A DNA stretch of 64,000 nucleotides. Origin: a virus. Lineage: Duplodnaviria; Caudoviricetes. Positions 19,375-33,623 of this stretch are shown here, in pieces. The DNA lies in IMG/VR virus record IMGVR_UViG_3300021255_001778, positions 1 through 64,000 of that record. One strand, written 5' to 3'. Numbering within the stretch: position 1 is the first letter of the stretch; each line of letters begins with the position of its first letter. Made by a program: the position numbers and the translations under genes. A model generated the notes under the pieces. That model was not told the origin of the DNA, made no database searches, and was given only the letters and a program-made list of their open reading frames with translations.

Positions 19375-19419
19375 TCTGAAAACACAGATATCTCTATTTG
19401 GAAGGGATGGTGATTATAT

Positions 19420-19752
19420 ATGTTCTATGTTGATGGAAATGACATCTATCTAACCCGTGGAGATACGATGATATTAAATGTGACAATCACAAAAGACGGA
19501 AGCTCCTACACTCCGGCATCCGGAGACACAATTCGTTTCGCTATGAAGCAACGATACGAAGATTCGGACGCAGACGTACTTATTAATAAAAACATTGACA
19601 TGAGCACAATGCAACTAACTCTCCTGCCCTCTGACACAAAGAATCTCAAGATGGGACGGAGCTACGTATACGACATCGAGTTCGTCGACGCAAGTGGCAA
19701 TGTCGATACGTTTATAAAAGGAAACTTTTATCTCGGTGAGGAGGTGCTGTAA
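19420..19752 (+). CDS. BppU-N-like baseplate/fibre attachment protein
   Basis: IYLTRGDT...L-x-P-x-D-T...Y-x-Y-D-I-E pattern. Confidence 0.55.
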   Translation: MFYVDGNDIYLTRGDTMILNVTITKDGSSYTPASGDTIRFAMKQRYEDSDADVLINKNIDMSTMQLTLLPSDTKNLKMGRSYVYDIEFVDASGNVDTFIKGNFYLGEEVL

Positions 19753-20009
19753 TGGCTGATATTTCTGGTAGCTTATCAGGATCTTCTACAGTATCCGGAT
19801 TGTTGGGATCTTCTACAATATCCGGATCGTTAGCTATGCCATTTGGTGCAATCGACGCTGAGATTGAAGAGCTTCGAAATGAATTACAGAATATTCGTTT
19901 GGGGGCAGACGGTACTACATATGACACGGCAGGTATCTCTGTCAGAACACAGATTCAGAATATTATAAACAACTCTCCTACCGTGGAGAATGGTAAGTTA
20001 GTCATTTAA
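19752..20009 (+). CDS. Hypothetical fibre-associated protein
   Basis: Coupled ORF; IRLGADGTTYDTAG motif. Confidence 0.6.
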   Translation: MADISGSLSGSSTVSGLLGSSTISGSLAMPFGAIDAEIEELRNELQNIRLGADGTTYDTAGISVRTQIQNIINNSPTVENGKLVI

Positions 20010-20019
20010 GAAAGGAGGC

Positions 20020-21165
20020 GTGAATATGGCTCTTAATGTTACTGTTGTTAAATTTAGAAAAGGAAACACCACTGCTCTCGCGTCTCCTTTGTATCAGTAT
20101 GACTACGGTCAGATTATTAAAATAGAAGGTCTCGATCTGCCAGACGCTTACGAGGTTCATTTCGACAATGTACTTGATGGCGTTGAAGCGATACCTCAGA
20201 TTGGCACAGCCGACGGCGTTGTCATCCCGGATGTTCTTCTCGAGGAATCGGATCCGATTTACGCATGGGTCTTCCTTCACGAGGGCGAGGATGATGGTGA
20301 GACAAAGTATGTCATTACCATTCCTATAAAGGCACGTTCTAAGGCCACACAGGTCACTCCCGATCCTGTTAAGCAGGATGTTATCACTCAGACGCTAGCG
20401 GCGCTGAATACGGCTGTAAACAAGGCTAATATAGCTATTAAGCATTATCCTTATATCGGCGAGACTGGTACGTGGCTCGTGTGGGATGTTGAGACTGAAG
20501 CGTATGTCGATACAGAGATTGACGCTACAGGGCCGCAAGGCGAACAGGGTATTCAAGGTGAGGTTGGCGAAACTGGAAATGGCATCGAGAGTGTCGTATT
20601 AAATCAAGACTATACTCTCACTATCAATTATACGAATGGTGATACGTACACAACATCGTCTATCAGAGGCGAGAAGGGTGCGACCGGTGATGCTGGTAAT
20701 GGCATTCAGGATATTCGTATGAACGCTGACTATACTCTCACTATTACTATGGAAGACGGATCGGTATATACTACCACTTCTATCCGTGGTGAAAAAGGTG
20801 AAAAGGGTGCGGACGGTGCGACTGGTAACGGAATAGATAGAATTACATTGAATCAGGATTACACCCTGACTGTGTATTTTACGGACGGAACCTCGACCAC
20901 GACATCTTCTATTCAAGGGCAGAAAGGTGAAAAGGGCGAGAAAGGAAGTACTGGAGATACTGGCAACGGTATTGATCATACCGTCCTTAACGACGATTAT
21001 ACACTTACGATTTATTATACAGATGGAACGTCTTTTACTACTACCCCAATTCGTGGCGCTCAGGGCGAGCAAGGTATTCAGGGTGAAAAAGGCGAGAAAG
21101 GTAAGGACGGATCTAAGATTGAATTTAATAATGGCGTGATGATTATCACAGGAGGTGACGCATAA
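20020..21165 (+). CDS. Collagen-like fibre protein with four ~40-aa repeats
   Basis: (GXY)n segments alternating with GNGI...LNxDYTLTIxYxDGxxxTTxxI repeats. Confidence 0.8.
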   Translation: MNMALNVTVVKFRKGNTTALASPLYQYDYGQIIKIEGLDLPDAYEVHFDNVLDGVEAIPQIGTADGVVIPDVLLEESDPIYAWVFLHEGEDDGETKYVITIPIKARSKATQVTPDPVKQDVITQTLAALNTAVNKANIAIKHYPYIGETGTWLVWDVETEAYVDTEIDATGPQGEQGIQGEVGETGNGIESVVLNQDYTLTINYTNGDTYTTSSIRGEKGATGDAGNGIQDIRMNADYTLTITMEDGSVYTTTSIRGEKGEKGADGATGNGIDRITLNQDYTLTVYFTDGTSTTTSSIQGQKGEKGEKGSTGDTGNGIDHTVLNDDYTLTIYYTDGTSFTTTPIRGAQGEQGIQGEKGEKGKDGSKIEFNNGVMIITGGDA

Positions 21166-22685
21166 TGCCATATGTTAATGTAATAAAAGACAAGGATACA
21201 GGCATAGAATATGAATTAACGCCGTCTTCTACCGCCGCTCTGTACAGCGCCAGCAGCACTTACGCAGTTGGCGATTTTTGTTATTATGACGGAACTTTGT
21301 ATAGATGCAAAACGGCGATCACAACTGGCGAAGCTTGGACAGCTGCTCACTGGGAAGCGACCACAGTCGGAGACAGTTTGAACGATGATGTATCGAACTT
21401 AAAGGACAATTTAAACGATTTAAACGATGCTCTTGGTACAACAGAACAAAGTGATAATTTGCTAAACCCATTGGGTTTTTCTGAAGGTTATTATTCGAGA
21501 GGAGCGTGGGTTGAGTCTACCACCTATTTGACAAGTGATTACATGGAATGTTTCGCTGAATCCGTGTATATTCATATGTTCAATCTGAATGATGGAACCT
21601 TGCAGGATACAGCACGAACATTCAGTTATATCTACTGGTTTGATGCACAGAAGAATTATCTAGACAGAACAAATCTTACGGCTGGAACAACTAGCTATAG
21701 TGTGCCAGATGGAGCGGTATTCTTCCGAGTCATGGATAGCAAAACCAGTATAACGAATAAACTGAATGACAACAAAGGCTTCTACGTTGGAGTCAAGGAC
21801 ACAGTAACATGGATTGCATACGATAAAGGCGGTGTGCCGAATTATGTTGAAATCATTGATGGAATAAATTCCAAAATTCAGAGTGCTTCATTAACTTTTG
21901 CGAATGGGGTTTACACGATAACAACAAATCATGCACGTTATATCATGCAACGAGTTACAATTCAGTCCGAAAATCTTGATACTTTCCGCCTATATAGGGG
22001 GGACCTTGTAAAAGGAAATGAAACATTCAACATGTGGAACAACTCTGATGCGGAAGGGGCTATTAGAATACAAAACGAGACGGATTTCGTAAGTGGTTAT
22101 CATGGCTCTGAAAAAATGACAGCTTATAAAATTTTTATGGACGGGGTAGACGTTACTTCTGAATTGTCCATTGATTCAGATTTTAACACGTTAATGTTCT
22201 ATGTTGAATCGGATGTTTACCATTGTTATCAAGACACATCTGTTGCGGACATCGTTGCGTTCAAGAGGAGTAAAATCGTTTGCTTTGACGGTGACAAAGT
22301 AACTATCAGTAATTCATACGTTGCACAAGAACCTTTGACTATTACGTCCGCAAAAATTACTCTGTTCCAATGCTACAAAACGGATGGAGACACCCCTATT
22401 TTTACTGATTTTTCGGTAAATACTGATTTTAAAAATTATTCAGTTTCAACTGTGGCAACGAGTAAGCCTACAGATAGCAACAAAATGTCCGAGGCAATTT
22501 TAAATACAACGTATGGAAATATTCGCTTTAAATCTCTTATGACAAGCGGACAATCATACAAGGGAAGCGTTACTGATTTTGCTTCGCAGAATCGTATTAA
22601 GTTCTATTTTGATACAATTTCTACGCCTACAGAAGTTCAAAGTGGAGAACAGATTGCGTCGCAATTTGAATTTGAAATAACTTAA
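21165..22685 (+). CDS. Putative receptor-binding/fibre protein with N-terminal CBM5/12-like anchor and variable C-terminal module
   Basis: YSASSTYAVGDFCYYDGTLYRC...WTAAHW motif; beta-rich C-terminus. Confidence 0.6.
   Translation: MPYVNVIKDKDTGIEYELTPSSTAALYSASSTYAVGDFCYYDGTLYRCKTAITTGEAWTAAHWEATTVGDSLNDDVSNLKDNLNDLNDALGTTEQSDNLLNPLGFSEGYYSRGAWVESTTYLTSDYMECFAESVYIHMFNLNDGTLQDTARTFSYIYWFDAQKNYLDRTNLTAGTTSYSVPDGAVFFRVMDSKTSITNKLNDNKGFYVGVKDTVTWIAYDKGGVPNYVEIIDGINSKIQSASLTFANGVYTITTNHARYIMQRVTIQSENLDTFRLYRGDLVKGNETFNMWNNSDAEGAIRIQNETDFVSGYHGSEKMTAYKIFMDGVDVTSELSIDSDFNTLMFYVESDVYHCYQDTSVADIVAFKRSKIVCFDGDKVTISNSYVAQEPLTITSAKITLFQCYKTDGDTPIFTDFSVNTDFKNYSVSTVATSKPTDSNKMSEAILNTTYGNIRFKSLMTSGQSYKGSVTDFASQNRIKFYFDTISTPTEVQSGEQIASQFEFEIT
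21396..21413 (+). other. Candidate recombination site L (AACTTAAAG-GACAA-TTTA) inside the RBP gene
   Basis: TAAA-N6-TTTA dyad; 9-bp direct repeat with 22679; read in frame as N-L-K. Confidence 0.5.
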
Positions 22686-22705
22686 AGATACCATTATTTA
22701 AGTAA
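22678..22705 (+). other. Candidate recombination site R (TAACTTAAAGA-TACCAT-TATTTAAGTAA)
   Basis: 11-6-11 imperfect inverted repeat (9/11) containing the RBP stop codon, immediately upstream of the recombinase promoter. Confidence 0.55.
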
Positions 22706-22708
22706 ATT

Positions 22709-22726
22709 TGCCATATAAATGTATTG
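22709..22726 (+). promoter_or_regulatory. 18-bp operator-like motif TGCCATATAAATGTATTG, copy 1
   Basis: Exact copy; last 3 bp overlap the -35 TTGACA. Confidence 0.8.
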
Positions 22727-22752
22727 ACAATACTACCCTTCTCGCTTATAAT
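22724..22752 (+). promoter_or_regulatory. SigmaA promoter of the XerD-like gene
   Basis: TTGACA-N17-TATAAT perfect consensus. Confidence 0.9.
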
Positions 22753-22769
22753 CCTAAGTATAAGAACGA

Positions 22770-23786
22770 ATGATTACAGGCGAGGAGGTGTTATTTGTGC
22801 CTGATTACAAGAATCAAGTTATTAAAAATATAGAAGTTATACTTGTCGAGAACGATAACTACTCTGCGGATTTGATGGATAAAATTGTATTGATGCTGAA
22901 CGACTATGATATCACTAAAACGTGTACTGACATAGTAGCGTACGACGATATCAATGAACGGATTTTGAATAGATATTGTGCATGTTTATATGTAGACGGT
23001 AAATCTGAAAAGACTATATATCAGTATAGAAGGTGCGTGGAGAAGTTTATCGGATACATTAAGAAGACCTTCATTGAAATCGATGTCTATGATATCAGAA
23101 TGTATCTCGCATCAGAAAAAGAACGTGGATTAGCCGATCGAACCACAGAGAATACAAGAGCTAATCTTTCCGCCTTCTTTCAGTGGATGACTGATGAGGA
23201 AATGATCAAGAAAAATCCATGCCTTAGTATCAGGCCGATAAAATGTAAGAAGGAAATAAAGCTTCCGTTCTCGAGCGTTGAACTTGATGCGTTGCGTAGC
23301 GCCTGTAGAAGCGATAAGGAACGTGCGATCATAGAGCTTCTGGTAACGTCAGGCATACGTGTGAACGAACTATCTAGAATGGATGTGACAGATATTAATT
23401 TTTCAGATATGTCAGTACACGTTCGGTTCGGTAAGGGTGCAAAAGAAAGGGTTACATTTATTAATGATGTAGCCAAAACATATATACAAAAATACATATC
23501 AAAAAGAAAAGATAGAAATATATCACTGTTCTGCAACAGAGCTGGAGATAGACTTGATACAGGCGGAGTCAGATACATAGTCAATAGCATCGGCGAAAGG
23601 GCTGGTATAGATAATGTCTATCCGCATAGATTTAGAAGGACATTCGCTACTACTCTTGCCGCTCGCGGAATGGCGATACAGGAAATTCAGAAGCTGCTCG
23701 GGCATAGCAATCTTAACACGACTATGGAATATGTTATCACAAGTGAGAGTATTCTGAGAGGATCCTATGATAAATTCATAGCTTAA
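22770..23786 (+). CDS. XerD-like tyrosine recombinase (catalytic residues intact)
   Basis: SGIRVNE, GKGAKER, HRFRR, LGH, TMEY; SAM-like N-terminal domain. Confidence 0.92.
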   Translation: MITGEEVLFVPDYKNQVIKNIEVILVENDNYSADLMDKIVLMLNDYDITKTCTDIVAYDDINERILNRYCACLYVDGKSEKTIYQYRRCVEKFIGYIKKTFIEIDVYDIRMYLASEKERGLADRTTENTRANLSAFFQWMTDEEMIKKNPCLSIRPIKCKKEIKLPFSSVELDALRSACRSDKERAIIELLVTSGIRVNELSRMDVTDINFSDMSVHVRFGKGAKERVTFINDVAKTYIQKYISKRKDRNISLFCNRAGDRLDTGGVRYIVNSIGERAGIDNVYPHRFRRTFATTLAARGMAIQEIQKLLGHSNLNTTMEYVITSESILRGSYDKFIA

Positions 23787-23790
23787 TATA

Positions 23791-23994
23791 ATGGGGGTGA
23801 CAGACGTGATGATTGCTGGCTCGGTGATGAATCAGATAGACTGGAAAGATTATTGCTATAAGAATGGTTTGGATGAACGAAAATGTAAGGATTGTTTTTG
23901 GTATTCTGATGTCACTGTAAAATGTTGCGAACGTGATGGATCGTATCCGTGCGATCAGCTGAGTCCTGCTTGTTCTGAGTTTTTAAATAAGTAA
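23791..23994 (+). CDS. Small Cys-rich hypothetical protein
   Basis: CKDC...CC...C...C pattern. Confidence 0.55.
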   Translation: MGVTDVMIAGSVMNQIDWKDYCYKNGLDERKCKDCFWYSDVTVKCCERDGSYPCDQLSPACSEFLNK

Positions 23995-24057
23995 GGACAT
24001 TTATGTCCTAACAAAAATGATTGACTGCCGGAGGGTTACTGCTCTCCGGCTTTTTGA

Positions 24058-24363
24058 ATGGAGGAAATGAGAATGGATATTATTGAGATTATTACAGAGA
24101 TTGGTGTTGTTGTCGGTATCGTAGCTCTGTGCTACATCATTGGAATTGGTCTGAAGGCGTGGAACAAATTCACTGATAATTGGATCCCGTTCATGATGGC
24201 TGTTTCTGGTGCTGTGATTGGCGTGATTAGTTACTTTGTCGAGCCGACTTTGCTCGGTGAGGTCGGAGGAATTATGTCTGCGATTATTAAAGGCGCAGTG
24301 TCCGGTCTGGCAGCGACAGGAATCAACCAGGTTGTTAAACAGGCACAGAAACCTGCTGAATAA
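24058..24363 (+). CDS. Holin
   Basis: Three hydrophobic helices; NWIP and GLAATGINQ motifs; upstream of the endolysin. Confidence 0.85.
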   Translation: MEEMRMDIIEIITEIGVVVGIVALCYIIGIGLKAWNKFTDNWIPFMMAVSGAVIGVISYFVEPTLLGEVGGIMSAIIKGAVSGLAATGINQVVKQAQKPAE

Positions 24364-24391
24364 AATTCTACTTTTATAAATCAGAAATGAG

Positions 24392-24706
24392 GTGATTTTA
24401 GTGACGCGTGGGACTACTCCTACACATACATTCACCACAGATATAGATTTATCCGAAGCTACAGCTATTTATGTTACCTATCAGCAGGAAGGTGAGAACC
24501 TTGTTGAGAAGACACTCGAGGATGTTACGTTCATCGACGGTGGGTTTCAGGTGACACTGACTCAGGATGATACTCTCCTCTTCTCTTCGGATAAAACAAA
24601 GAAAGTGTATATTCAGGTCAGAGCCGTTCTTTCTGATGAAACAAGAATTGCATCGAATATCATCAGAACAGATATACATGCGATTCTGAAAGACGGTGCG
24701 ATATGA
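24392..24706 (+). CDS. BppU-N-like small protein
   Basis: RGTTPTHTF...LTQDDTLLF...IQVRA pattern. Confidence 0.55.
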   Translation: MILVTRGTTPTHTFTTDIDLSEATAIYVTYQQEGENLVEKTLEDVTFIDGGFQVTLTQDDTLLFSSDKTKKVYIQVRAVLSDETRIASNIIRTDIHAILKDGAI

Positions 24707-24867
24707 TCTTTCGAATTGAATTTGATCAGGACTCTGACTTCAAGCTATCGATGGAGGACACGGACGTCATGCCAATGACGTTTCAAGAGAACAATGAGTT
24801 CGACATCAAGATAGCTGATTATGAACCACAGACAACTGCCGAGGCTTAATGCCTCGGCTTTATTTAA

Positions 24868-26679
24868 TTGGAGGTGAGTCCGTTGGCAAATAAAAATGTA
24901 ACTGCTCTTGACGCTATTAATGTCATGAGATCGTGGATTGGTTTGAGCCGAGCCGCACAGACGCACAGAGTGATTATAGATATCTATAACAGTCATACTC
25001 CTCTCGCAGTTGGTTACAAGGTCTCGTACTACGACGATTACTGCGACACAACGGTATCTGCTGTCTTTATTAAGCTTGATGCTGTAGAGATGATTGGCGG
25101 AACTGAATGTGGAGTCGAGCGACATGTTCAGATTTTTAAACAGGCTGGTATATGGGAGGAAGACGGATCTGTAAGACCTGAGCCAGGATGGATTATTGTC
25201 TACAATTGGGACGATAACACACAGCCTAATGATGGGTATTCTGACCACATCGGTTTCGTAGAGTCTGTTTCCAATAATGTAATCACTCTTATCGAAGGGA
25301 ATATGGACGGTGGCGTTGTTGGTCGTAGACAGATCCCTATTGGATATGGATATATTCGTGGTTTTGCTAAGCCGAAGTATGCAGCTTCTGCTAGTGAACA
25401 GACTATCTCATCTTCTTCTACTCCGAAGAAATCTATAGAGGAAATTGCCAATGAGGTTATGGATGGTAAGTGGAGCAACGGCGATACTCGTAAGTCTCTT
25501 CTTGCTGCTGCCGGATATGATTACAACGCTGTTCAGGCGAAAGTAAATGAACTGTTAAACGGTACGTCTAGCTCGCCGAGTCAATCTACAAGCAATACTA
25601 CAACTGTAAAAGGAAGTGATGGCATGACAAAGACTGTTATTGACGTGTCTTATGCTCAGCCGAACGTTGATTGGAATAAAGTTAAATCTCAGATTGATGG
25701 CGCGATTCTTAGATGTGGATATGGTTCTGACATTTCTTCTCAGGATGACAAACAGTGGGCTAGAAATATCGCAGAGGTAGAACGTCTGGGCATTCCGTAT
25801 GGCGTGTACCTGTATTCATATGCAAGTAATTCTTCTGAGATTCAGAGCGAAATCAACCATACCCTGAGATTGATTAAAGGACACAAACCGAAGCTCGGAG
25901 TTTTCTACGATCTTGAAGAAGCTGGAAATGGTGCTGTTGCTGCACAGGCCGCAAAGACATGGTGCAAGCAGATTAAAAATGCTGGGTATCGTCCCGGCAT
26001 TTATTGTGGCGCTTATTTCTATAAAGCGTATTTGAATGGCGTACACAACGCAGTAGATGCTCTCTGGTGGATTGCTGGATACGGCACGAACACTGGTGTG
26101 CCTCAGCTCAATTATAAGCCGAATACAGGCTTTGAATACGATGCATGGCAATATACCAGCGTTAAGACTTATGACGGCATTAATGGAGGTGTAGACACCT
26201 CAGAATGGTATGCTAGCTTCGATGATGACGTTAAGCCTGCAACCGATACGAATATCTATTATCGTGTGCACTGTCAGACACACGGATGGATGAACGCTGT
26301 ATCTAACGGTGAATGGGCTGGCACAAGCGGCGAATCAAAACGTCTTGAAGCCTTAAAGATCACTCCGCCTGAAGGAGTGGAGCTTGAGGTCACTGTTCAC
26401 ATTCAGACATATGGTGACAGAACATACAAAGGAATAAAGAAAGGTGTGTCGTCTGGACTTGGTTCTTCTACGAACGATCCGATCATCGGTACGACTGGCG
26501 AAAGCAAACGTATTGAAGGCATCACGATTAAGTGTACGAAGAACACGACAGGAAAACACATCAAATATCAAGGACACTGCCAGACCTATGGAGATACAAA
26601 AATCTGTTCTGATGGCGAGTTCTGCGGAACGAAAGGTGAGTCTAAGAGATTAGAGGCTATTAGGATTTGGTTTGAGTAA
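24868..26679 (+). CDS. Endolysin: CHAP + CW_7 + GH25 muramidase + ChW repeats
   Basis: YCDTTVS/DHIGFVE/IEGN (CHAP); KKSIEEIANEV...GYDYNAVQ (CW_7); IDVSYAQ...YDLEE (GH25); YRVHCQTHGW...KRLEAL (ChW). Confidence 0.9.
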   Translation: MEVSPLANKNVTALDAINVMRSWIGLSRAAQTHRVIIDIYNSHTPLAVGYKVSYYDDYCDTTVSAVFIKLDAVEMIGGTECGVERHVQIFKQAGIWEEDGSVRPEPGWIIVYNWDDNTQPNDGYSDHIGFVESVSNNVITLIEGNMDGGVVGRRQIPIGYGYIRGFAKPKYAASASEQTISSSSTPKKSIEEIANEVMDGKWSNGDTRKSLLAAAGYDYNAVQAKVNELLNGTSSSPSQSTSNTTTVKGSDGMTKTVIDVSYAQPNVDWNKVKSQIDGAILRCGYGSDISSQDDKQWARNIAEVERLGIPYGVYLYSYASNSSEIQSEINHTLRLIKGHKPKLGVFYDLEEAGNGAVAAQAAKTWCKQIKNAGYRPGIYCGAYFYKAYLNGVHNAVDALWWIAGYGTNTGVPQLNYKPNTGFEYDAWQYTSVKTYDGINGGVDTSEWYASFDDDVKPATDTNIYYRVHCQTHGWMNAVSNGEWAGTSGESKRLEALKITPPEGVELEVTVHIQTYGDRTYKGIKKGVSSGLGSSTNDPIIGTTGESKRIEGITIKCTKNTTGKHIKYQGHCQTYGDTKICSDGEFCGTKGESKRLEAIRIWFE

Positions 26680-33605: not shown

Positions 33606-33623
33606 TGCCATATAAATGTATTG
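33606..33623 (+). promoter_or_regulatory. 18-bp operator-like motif, copy 2 (abuts the dut RBS)
   Basis: Exact copy. Confidence 0.8.

Follow-up and report, generated by a model that had tools for sequence, protein, structure and literature searches.

A 64,000-nt stretch of viral DNA, hereafter the window, which comprises the first 64,000 nt of the linear 83.8-kb IMG/VR virus record IMGVR_UViG_3300021255_001778, carries a tail fibre (receptor-binding protein) gene followed by a gene for an Xer-type tyrosine recombinase, and the C-terminal part of the fibre gene lies between two short sites in direct orientation (Site L and Site R). With a probability of roughly 0.65, this region represents one copy of a module, widespread among temperate Clostridia phages of the rumen and gut (Lachnospiraceae-type), that replaces the receptor-binding end of the fibre by site-specific recombination. 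Near-identical relatives contain unrelated DNA between the two sites, the junctions fall inside the sites, and the in-frame layout of the fibre is retained. From these comparisons we infer that the recombinase takes part in the replacement and that the exchange occurs in the spacers of the sites.

In three independent sets of near-identical phages, the differences are confined to the DNA between the sites (relatives are designated below by locus numbers, e.g., L008). The first set is the clade of the window itself, which together with L008, L009 and L010 has flanks that are 94-99.5% identical. As far as Site L, the identity between L008 and the window is 94%, and the divergence begins within that site; the homology returns at Site R and continues through the recombinase gene (76%) and the lysis genes, with 94% identity over the right backbone at 24058..26679 (holin and endolysin). 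L008, L009 and L010 have an identical recombinase, and their identity of 98.7-99.5% starts 3 nt before the left arm of the R site. The DNA between the sites showed no similarity among the four phages by either blastn or tblastx. The inserts measure 1.28 kb in the window, 3.5 kb in L008, 2.27 kb in L010 and at least 0.6 kb in L009. That of L008 (L008:269-3532) is multi-gene and includes a reverse transcriptase (RVT_1) and a DUF6273 protein, and that of L010 codes for a Big_2 protein. The L008 insert may represent a diversifier that resembles a diversity-generating retroelement (DGR), carried as exchangeable cargo.

The second clade (L167, L168, L170 and L161) possesses a recombinase that is identical among its members and 57% identical to that of the window. 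L167, L168 and L170 share an upstream flank of 100% identity that extends into the L site as far as nt 21-28, and a downstream flank in which an identity of 99.9-100% sets in at nt 7-9 of the R site; the inserts in between (1.38, 1.49 and 1.84 kb, respectively) are unrelated, and L161 carries a fourth unrelated insert. Within the L167 set, the right arm of L and the left arm of R vary with the insert, whereas the left arm of L and the right arm of R are constant with the backbone, as crossovers within the spacers would be expected to produce. A single-position difference is found in one R spacer. In the third clade (L011, L012 and L013), identity is 100% from inside the left arm of the R site, and L013 is different upstream. 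The ends of the assembled contigs fit this picture: of 23 contig ends in loci of the family, 10 are at most 130 nt from a site, and a further two contigs start inside one, as opposed to 1.9% of random positions, suggesting that assemblers meet branching populations there. The original prediction, which had been made from the window alone, proposed that homology with related phages would break at both sites with different modules in between, and such breaks are present in the window clade and in the L167 clade.

The window contains exactly two copies of the 9-mer AACTTAAAG (21396-21404 and 22679-22687), which are spaced by 1283 bp on the + strand; the extended pattern AACTTAAAG-N5-WTTA is found in the same two places only. 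This pair of direct repeats was the starting point of the original prediction, and its caution that such a 9-bp repeat may arise by chance was justified. At least two copies of the 9-mer appeared in 18 of 100 shuffles and the extended pattern was reproduced in 6 of 100, and 25 other families of direct repeats of at least 9 nt are present in the 3.2-kb region. By itself, the 9-mer repeat is at chance level, and its significance comes only from the comparison with relatives.

Site L (21393..21420, + strand) consists of a left arm (21393-21403), the spacer GGACAA (21404-21409) and a right arm (21410-21420). It lies in frame 0 of the fibre gene, where it is read S-N-L-K-D-N-L-N-D, and the repeat corresponds to N78-L79-K80 of the 506-residue open reading frame (ORF), in agreement with the N-L-K reading proposed earlier. 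Site R (22676..22703, + strand) consists of a left arm (22676-22686), the spacer GATACC (22687-22692) and a weak right arm (22693-22703); it is located 120 nt before the recombinase start and aligns base for base, without gaps, to the 21.7-bit R site of L008-L010. The stop codon of the fibre gene, TAA at 22683-22685, lies inside the left arm of Site R and is read ACT TAA. This stop had been assigned to an 11-6-11 dyad, and both the ACT TAA reading and such a dyad exist (22678-22688 / 22695-22705, symmetric at 9 of 11 positions), but the dyad is 2 nt out of register with that of the family described below. No further sites were detected on either strand of the 83.8-kb record, and there are no significant inverted repeats around the cassette.

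A dyad with the consensus ACTnAyTTAAA-N6-TTTAAnTnAGT, in a dif-like 11-6-11 layout, occurs upstream of the recombinase gene in more than 20 phage loci. Its distance from the recombinase start is ~190-215 nt, or 120 nt in the clade of the window, and the recombinases of the dyad-bearing loci are 44-79% identical to that of the window. A weight matrix was constructed from 19 dyad sites of other phages, and both strands of the window were scanned with it. Site L was the top match with 19.2 bits, followed by a runner-up of 9.6 bits; of 300 dinucleotide-shuffled versions of the window, only 2 contained a match that reached 19.2 bits at any position. Site L was again first when the full 83.8-kb record was scanned (19.2 versus 12.8 bits for the runner-up). 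The earlier suggestion that Site L is a site for the recombinase is thus upheld in that it is a true match to the family site.

Second sites were counted in the 4 kb upstream of the recombinase-proximal site of each locus, on the same strand and with a threshold of 12 bits. There were 18 such sites in 61 kb upstream of the R sites versus 2 in 62 kb downstream. The upstream site is located inside the fibre ORF, in codon phase 0 every time (16 loci and the window), and is read (S/T)-(D/N)-L-K-x-D-L; the site pairs of the relatives are, like that of the window, in direct orientation. The last ORF before the recombinase commonly has its stop within the left arm of R, an arm that is open in phase 0 and contains stops in both other phases. 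The in-frame design predicted from the window, with a separate stop for each cassette, is general among the loci of the relatives. Three sites in a row are found at L019, L032 and L100. In L023 (L023:9567-12473), a second fibre gene of 884 aa, with an SGNH/GDSL C-terminus, follows the recombinase gene; this fibre gene contains an in-frame L-type site of its own (10422), and after its stop there are two R-type sites (12281 and 12446). One recombinase may thus serve two cassette loci in L023, and the recombinase-proximal site is not merely an operator of the promoter. As to the explanation that an AT-rich 9-mer merely happens to occur twice, the shuffle counts given above are in its favour, but the matrix, second-site, contig-end and L167-set results are independent of the 9-mer repeat, and we regard its probability as practically negligible.

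The fibre gene (21165..22685, + strand, 506 aa) combines a constant N-terminal part with a replaceable C-terminal part: the N-terminus is common to many proteins with other C-termini, and the C-terminus to proteins with other N-termini. The constant anchor includes a small CBM5/12-like beta domain (Pfam PF02839) at aa 27-60 (21243..21344, + strand), and Site L follows this anchor as originally described. The PF02839 score of this segment is 23.6 bits, under the Pfam cut-off of 26.2, and its homologues are annotated as PF02839. In the AlphaFold model of the fibre (mean pLDDT 79.5), strands occur at aa 38-66, and Site L falls inside a linker helix (aa 71-89) that joins the small N-terminal beta domain to two beta-sandwich domains. 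The latter, with their connecting helix at 227-237, are the modelled product of the cassette, which extends from the L spacer to the R spacer (21404..22692, + strand, with a 1283-bp period) and encodes aa ~81-506. Weak fold matches relate the cassette domains to accessory beta-sandwiches of carbohydrate enzymes. Cassettes in L001, L002 and L003 are 58-63% identical in amino acid sequence to that of the window (58-61% for L001 and L002); both sites are present in L001 and L002 and neither in L003, and it appears from the sequences that the sites may travel together with the cassette. L011, which also codes for a CBM5/12 protein, was considered as an 'empty platform' and rejected, since that protein is distinct, has two repeats and lacks an L site.

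The spacers of L and R differ in 17 of 17 loci, with at most 3 of 6 positions alike. Some spacers recur, namely GGAAGA among the L sites (7 loci) and GGGCAA and GCAGAC among the R sites (4 each). For tyrosine recombinases, productive exchange needs matching overlap regions. By this rule, the unlike L and R spacers would disfavor deletion by L x R recombination and would favor exchange between like sites, L x L' and R x R'.

In the mechanism that we propose, a dedicated arm-less Xer-type recombinase, encoded between the last fibre gene and the holin gene, would bind both direct 11-6-11 sites and exchange strands in their 6-bp spacers. The cassette would be replaced through L x L' and R x R' exchange, the partner being either a relative that resides in or infects the same cell or a cassette circle, and a single crossover at either site between collinear genomes would also produce a viable hybrid. 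Site L lies in the linker helix, between the constant anchor and the variable part, and Site R, which is located shortly before the recombinase promoter, overlaps the stop codon with which the last cassette gene ends. The traded cassettes would range from single fibre tips to multi-gene sets with a DGR. Because every L site has the same codon phase and each cassette has its own stop, any incoming module would be fused in frame. There is, in our estimate, an even chance that many Clostridia phages possess in this form a natural in-frame 'plug-and-play' receptor-binding platform, composed of one Xer-type recombinase and two 28-bp sites with incompatible spacers, by which co-occurring phages would trade whole host-recognition cassettes while the frame is kept and self-deletion avoided.

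The original prediction favored a different route, in which the L and R sites of a single genome recombine to release the cassette as a 1283-bp circle, with re-integration of circles by an integron-like single-strand exchange that tolerates unlike spacers. The direct orientation of L and R would indeed give excision, the deletion product would read ...VSNLKIPLFK* and keep an open frame, as had been stated, and the three-site loci (L019, L032 and L100) resemble short arrays. Nevertheless, the mismatch between the L and R spacers throughout the 17 loci favors like-site exchange, no empty platform was found, and the enzyme fell short of the integron-integrase models, with scores of 88 bits for the IntI model TIGR02249 (cut-off 265) and 48 for PRK15417 (cut-off 435). 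Furthermore, the sites are short symmetric dyads of the double-strand type, 28 bp in length, without the folded structure of attC sites; the latter are long imperfect palindromes, recombined as folded single strands. We therefore consider excision and re-integration of this kind very improbable. Of the original interpretation, the swapping of modules at both sites has been retained, and the integron-like mechanism and the L x R circle are not supported.

The recombinase (22797..23786, + strand, 329 aa) matches Pfam PF00589 at 2.7e-35 and Phage_int_SAM_1/4 at aa 67-145; its first ~60 aa are without a family match. The five catalytic residues (R188, H277, R280, H303 and Y312) are invariant in an alignment of 27 family members, and the gene is preceded by a sigma-70-type promoter (TTGACA-17-TATAAT, 22724-22752, + strand) that matches the consensus at 12 of 12 positions; the earlier description of an intact recombinase with its own consensus promoter was thus accurate. 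The best PDB matches are XerC-like 4a8e, XerA 5hxy and XerD 1a0p. NCBIfam scores were 210 bits for XerA_Arch (cut-off 220), 176 for XerC (cut-off 335) and 158 for XerD (cut-off 330), and as all of these are below the equivalog cut-offs, assignment of the protein as a chromosomal XerC/XerD equivalog was rejected. Judged from its sequence, the protein is an arm-less Xer-type tyrosine recombinase that lacks the lambda-type arm-binding domain and is presumably catalytic. More than 1400 homologues of 329-333 aa were identified. The likely start is GTG 22797, which has a ribosome-binding site upstream and is replaced by ATG at that position in relatives. This start is 112 nt past the fibre stop, and not within 100 bp of it as originally proposed; the shorter distance would apply only to the alternative ATG at 22770.

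An operator-like motif, ATATAAATGTATTG (22713-22729, + strand), reaches into the -35 box of the recombinase promoter. When as many as 3 mismatches are allowed, ATATAAATGTATTG(ACA) occurs in 9 copies in the window versus 0.63 expected, the copies being that at 22713-22729, those at 33610, 39360, 39427(-), 46140, 57260 and 58824(-), and two weaker ones. The motif recurs at other promoters of the window phage, which suggests a phage-wide regulon that takes in the recombinase. Having its own operator-bearing consensus promoter, the recombinase can be expressed apart from the late operon.

Most members of the family contain a conserved structured leader in the ~135 nt before the recombinase start (e.g., L017:6860-7000), as found in L006, L011, L014, L015, L017-L021, L024, L026-L031, L033, L034, L036, L081, L095 and L100. 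It is situated 3' of the promoter and contains two hairpins, 11 of whose 15 pairs show compensatory changes, as well as a small third hairpin that overlaps the ribosome-binding site. This leader is missing from the clade of the window, which has a shorter one instead, and Rfam gave nothing at the gathering score for either the conserved leader or the window region. Within the recombinase gene of the window there is a perfect 16-bp inverted repeat (22919-22934 / 23408-23423, arms 473 nt apart), which is probably incidental since it is not conserved in the relatives.

The window also codes for a canonical phage integrase (27375..28664, - strand; PF00589 and Phage_int_M), which shares only 24% identity with the Xer-type enzyme; the latter is thus a second, separate recombinase. 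The family phages examined likewise contain an additional ordinary integrase beside a repressor. These facts bear on an alternative in which a Cre/loxP-like or dif-like system, made up of the recombinase and Site R, serves genome resolution or circularisation or autoregulation of the promoter, with the junctions at R as a hot-spot by-product and the L sites as pseudo-sites. In every locus R adjoins the promoter of the recombinase gene, an arrangement reminiscent of loxP and the nearby cre, and Xer-type enzymes classically resolve dimers at 11-6-11 sites. Moreover, a tyrosine recombinase in the structural module of tyroviruses has an adjacent 11-6-11 site, and its role is unknown (PMC9703825). 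On the other hand, lysogeny in these phages is already served by the canonical integrase and repressor, and the module is always located beside receptor-binding genes, including in isolated phages. The L sites are recurrent, keep a constant codon phase and are themselves breakpoints of homology and assembly, and the L/R pair around the second fibre gene of L023 is away from the promoter. A Cre/loxP-like or dif-like function of this sort seems to us quite unlikely to account for the region.

Several findings weigh against site-specific replacement of the cassette. L001 and L002 carry both sites, without a cognate recombinase within 6 kb. Mosaic junctions are present at fibre aa ~235 of the window phage's fibre and inside the L021 and L017 fibres, and no sites were found at them; ordinary recombination therefore also shuffles these fibre genes. 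The L sites encode a recurrent linker-helix peptide, (S/T)-(D/N)-L-K-x-D-L, and part of their similarity could be protein-driven. Randomisation of synonymous codons placed the real L sites in the top 0.02-7%, in favor of selection at the DNA level, but the test is biased because the sites were found by their DNA. A phage homologous recombinase may also perform exchange over 20-30 bp of conserved sequence. Finally, the Site R of the window scores only 8.6 bits with the family matrix, its left arm being good and its right arm weak, and the same cassette was found in three assemblies of the window phage, so that the window copy may be slow, poorly active or inactive. The integrases of L001 and L002 were examined as cognate enzymes and rejected, being unrelated to the recombinase family of the window.

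The site-less junctions, the position of the L sites within a conserved peptide and the retention of sites in L001 and L002 would all be in line with ordinary modular mosaicism, in which the conserved linker and the intergenic stretch would serve as short homology patches for host RecA or for a phage single-strand annealing protein, the adjoining recombinase being uninvolved. Such an explanation, however, does not account for the resemblance of the non-coding R to the coding L in both arms, nor for the 11-6-11 dyad form, nor for the fixed distance between site and gene across enzymes of only 44-60% identity. In the L167 set, moreover, the shared patches are only ~21-28 nt in length, yet the flanks are 100% identical. 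Mosaicism without the recombinase is, in our view, an unlikely source of the observed pattern, and site-specific replacement remains the preferred reading.

Among published phage systems, the closest precedent that we found is the Rin shufflon, described in prophages of Bifidobacterium (and Eggerthella) by Mavrich et al. 2018 (PMC6109161; PMC8778435). Like Rin, the enzyme of the window is a phage-encoded XerD-like recombinase without an arm-binding domain, distinct from the prophage integrase, and is encoded beside a receptor-binding gene with a constant N-terminal and a variable C-terminal part, with short crossover sites between them. The Rin system contains several silent Rv cassettes per genome and acts by inversion at asymmetric 11-bp rix sites, whereas the present locus has one cassette and two direct, dyad-symmetric 28-bp sites with unlike spacers. 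The alternatives here lie in other genomes, which implies replacement rather than inversion. A Rin-type shufflon, in which inversion would bring silent C-terminal cassettes into the expressed fibre gene, is suggested by the common layout of constant N-terminus, variable C-terminus and XerD-like recombinase (PMC6109161), but neither inverted sites nor silent cassettes are present in any part of the 83.8-kb record, the window included, the site pairs of the relatives are direct, and the rix sequence TTCCCTAACCC gave 0 matches with up to 1 mismatch. We find such a shufflon hardly credible here. In the invertible fibre systems Gin (Mu), Cin (P1) and Min (p15B), site-specific recombination also alters the C-terminal part of the fibre and leaves the N-terminal part constant; these, however, are based on serine recombinases and inversion, and their alternatives are stored in the same genome.

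Integrons share with the present module a platform of recombinase and site, unrelated cassettes in one orientation and position-dependent expression, and a few loci have two cassettes in a row. Unlike integrons, the enzyme is not an IntI, the sites are 28-bp arm-spacer-arm dyads with no long palindrome at the cassette ends, the recombinase gene is downstream of the cassettes and co-oriented with them, and expression depends on in-frame gene fusion and is not Pc-driven. Engineered heterospecific lox/FRT exchange is similar in that the cassette lies between two sites whose spacers are incompatible, so that deletion is avoided and the insert is swapped by exchange of like sites with like; that arrangement is a laboratory design, whereas the spacer rule is inferred here. 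Natural Cre/loxP of phage P1 also employs one tyrosine recombinase and palindromic arm-spacer-arm sites near its own gene, and has one site, which serves plasmid-prophage maintenance (PMC2409434). The pdif modules of Acinetobacter plasmids are, similarly, discrete modules bounded by Xer-type 11-6-11 sites, in various backbones and with breakpoints at the sites; they rely on host XerC/XerD and inversely oriented site pairs and carry resistance or accessory genes, as opposed to the phage enzyme, direct sites and in-frame structural-gene cargo described here (PMC9455709). Integrons, pdif modules and Cre/loxP are functional analogies and not families to which this module belongs.

The gp50 protein of tyroviruses (Bacillus phages) may be related in kind, as an Xer-like recombinase encoded in the virion-gene block of phages with other recombinases present, with an adjacent 11-bp inverted repeat around a 6-bp core (PMC9703825). 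Its gene is located between the neck and tape-measure genes, the site was read as attP, and no second site or cassette variation was reported (PMC9703825). Direct-site replacement of fibre cassettes was not described in the literature that we searched, outside of which lay most subscription journals.

Host range is a central variable of both the ecology and the use of phages. Fibre genes are known to be mosaic, and this mosaicism is usually ascribed to chance homologous or illegitimate recombination. If the present reading is true, phages carry machinery selected for the population-wide exchange of receptor-binding parts, a counterpart of integrons and pdif modules. Host range would then have an evolutionary mechanism dedicated to it, separate from inversion switches, DGRs and homologous mosaicism. 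It would explain the assembly breaks at the fibre locus in rumen and gut metagenomes, and also why Clostridium and Terrisporobacter phage isolates have, between their fibre and holin genes, a 'second integrase' to which no role is assigned. Were the system confirmed, it would also provide a small enzyme-and-site pair.

The relatives derive from rumen and gut metagenomes and from genome bins of Lachnospiraceae or Oscillospiraceae. In every context examined, the recombinase gene is located between the last tail or fibre gene and the holin gene. Two isolated phages, Terrisporobacter phage TPELB_ph1 and Clostridium phage phiCp-D, have the same fibre-recombinase-holin order, and 'integrase' is the only annotation of the gene in them. 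In TPELB_ph1 (L159:4740-4770), a perfect 8-8-8 dyad, TGCACAAT...ATTGTGCA, is located directly 3' of the fibre stop, and is a candidate cognate site for what would be a distant member of the system. Comparison of positions 19400-24400 with 50,697 phage records by blastn gave no match, and no relative of the fibre protein was found among viral contigs. An exact search of metagenome contigs with the upstream flank and left arm of L gave one match, unrelated and by chance, and an exact scan of viral contigs with the promoter/operator stretch gave three loci, all unrelated.

The module of the window is situated, on the + strand, in the same region as a tape-measure-like gene of 1455 aa and further tail genes. 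Upstream of the fibre gene is a collagen-like fibre gene (20020-21165, + strand) with Collagen and CFSR repeats, whose internal repeat units are spaced at 129-138 nt; a spurious antisense ORF of 190 aa overlaps it. A cysteine-rich ORF of 67 aa (23791..23994, + strand), without a family match, is found directly 3' of the recombinase. As it is present in L009 and L158 and missing from L008 and L010, it is optional in the relatives, and it may represent an accessory or directionality factor. A terminator-like hairpin (24027-24050) follows this ORF and precedes the genes for the holin (24058-24363) and a CHAP/GH25/ChW endolysin (24868-26679), both on the + strand and identified by Pfam and PHROG matches. 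The GC content falls from ~0.44 before Site L to 0.33-0.39 over 21400-23200, which covers the cassette (~0.38) and the start of the recombinase gene, and rises again to ~0.42-0.44 in the lysis genes.

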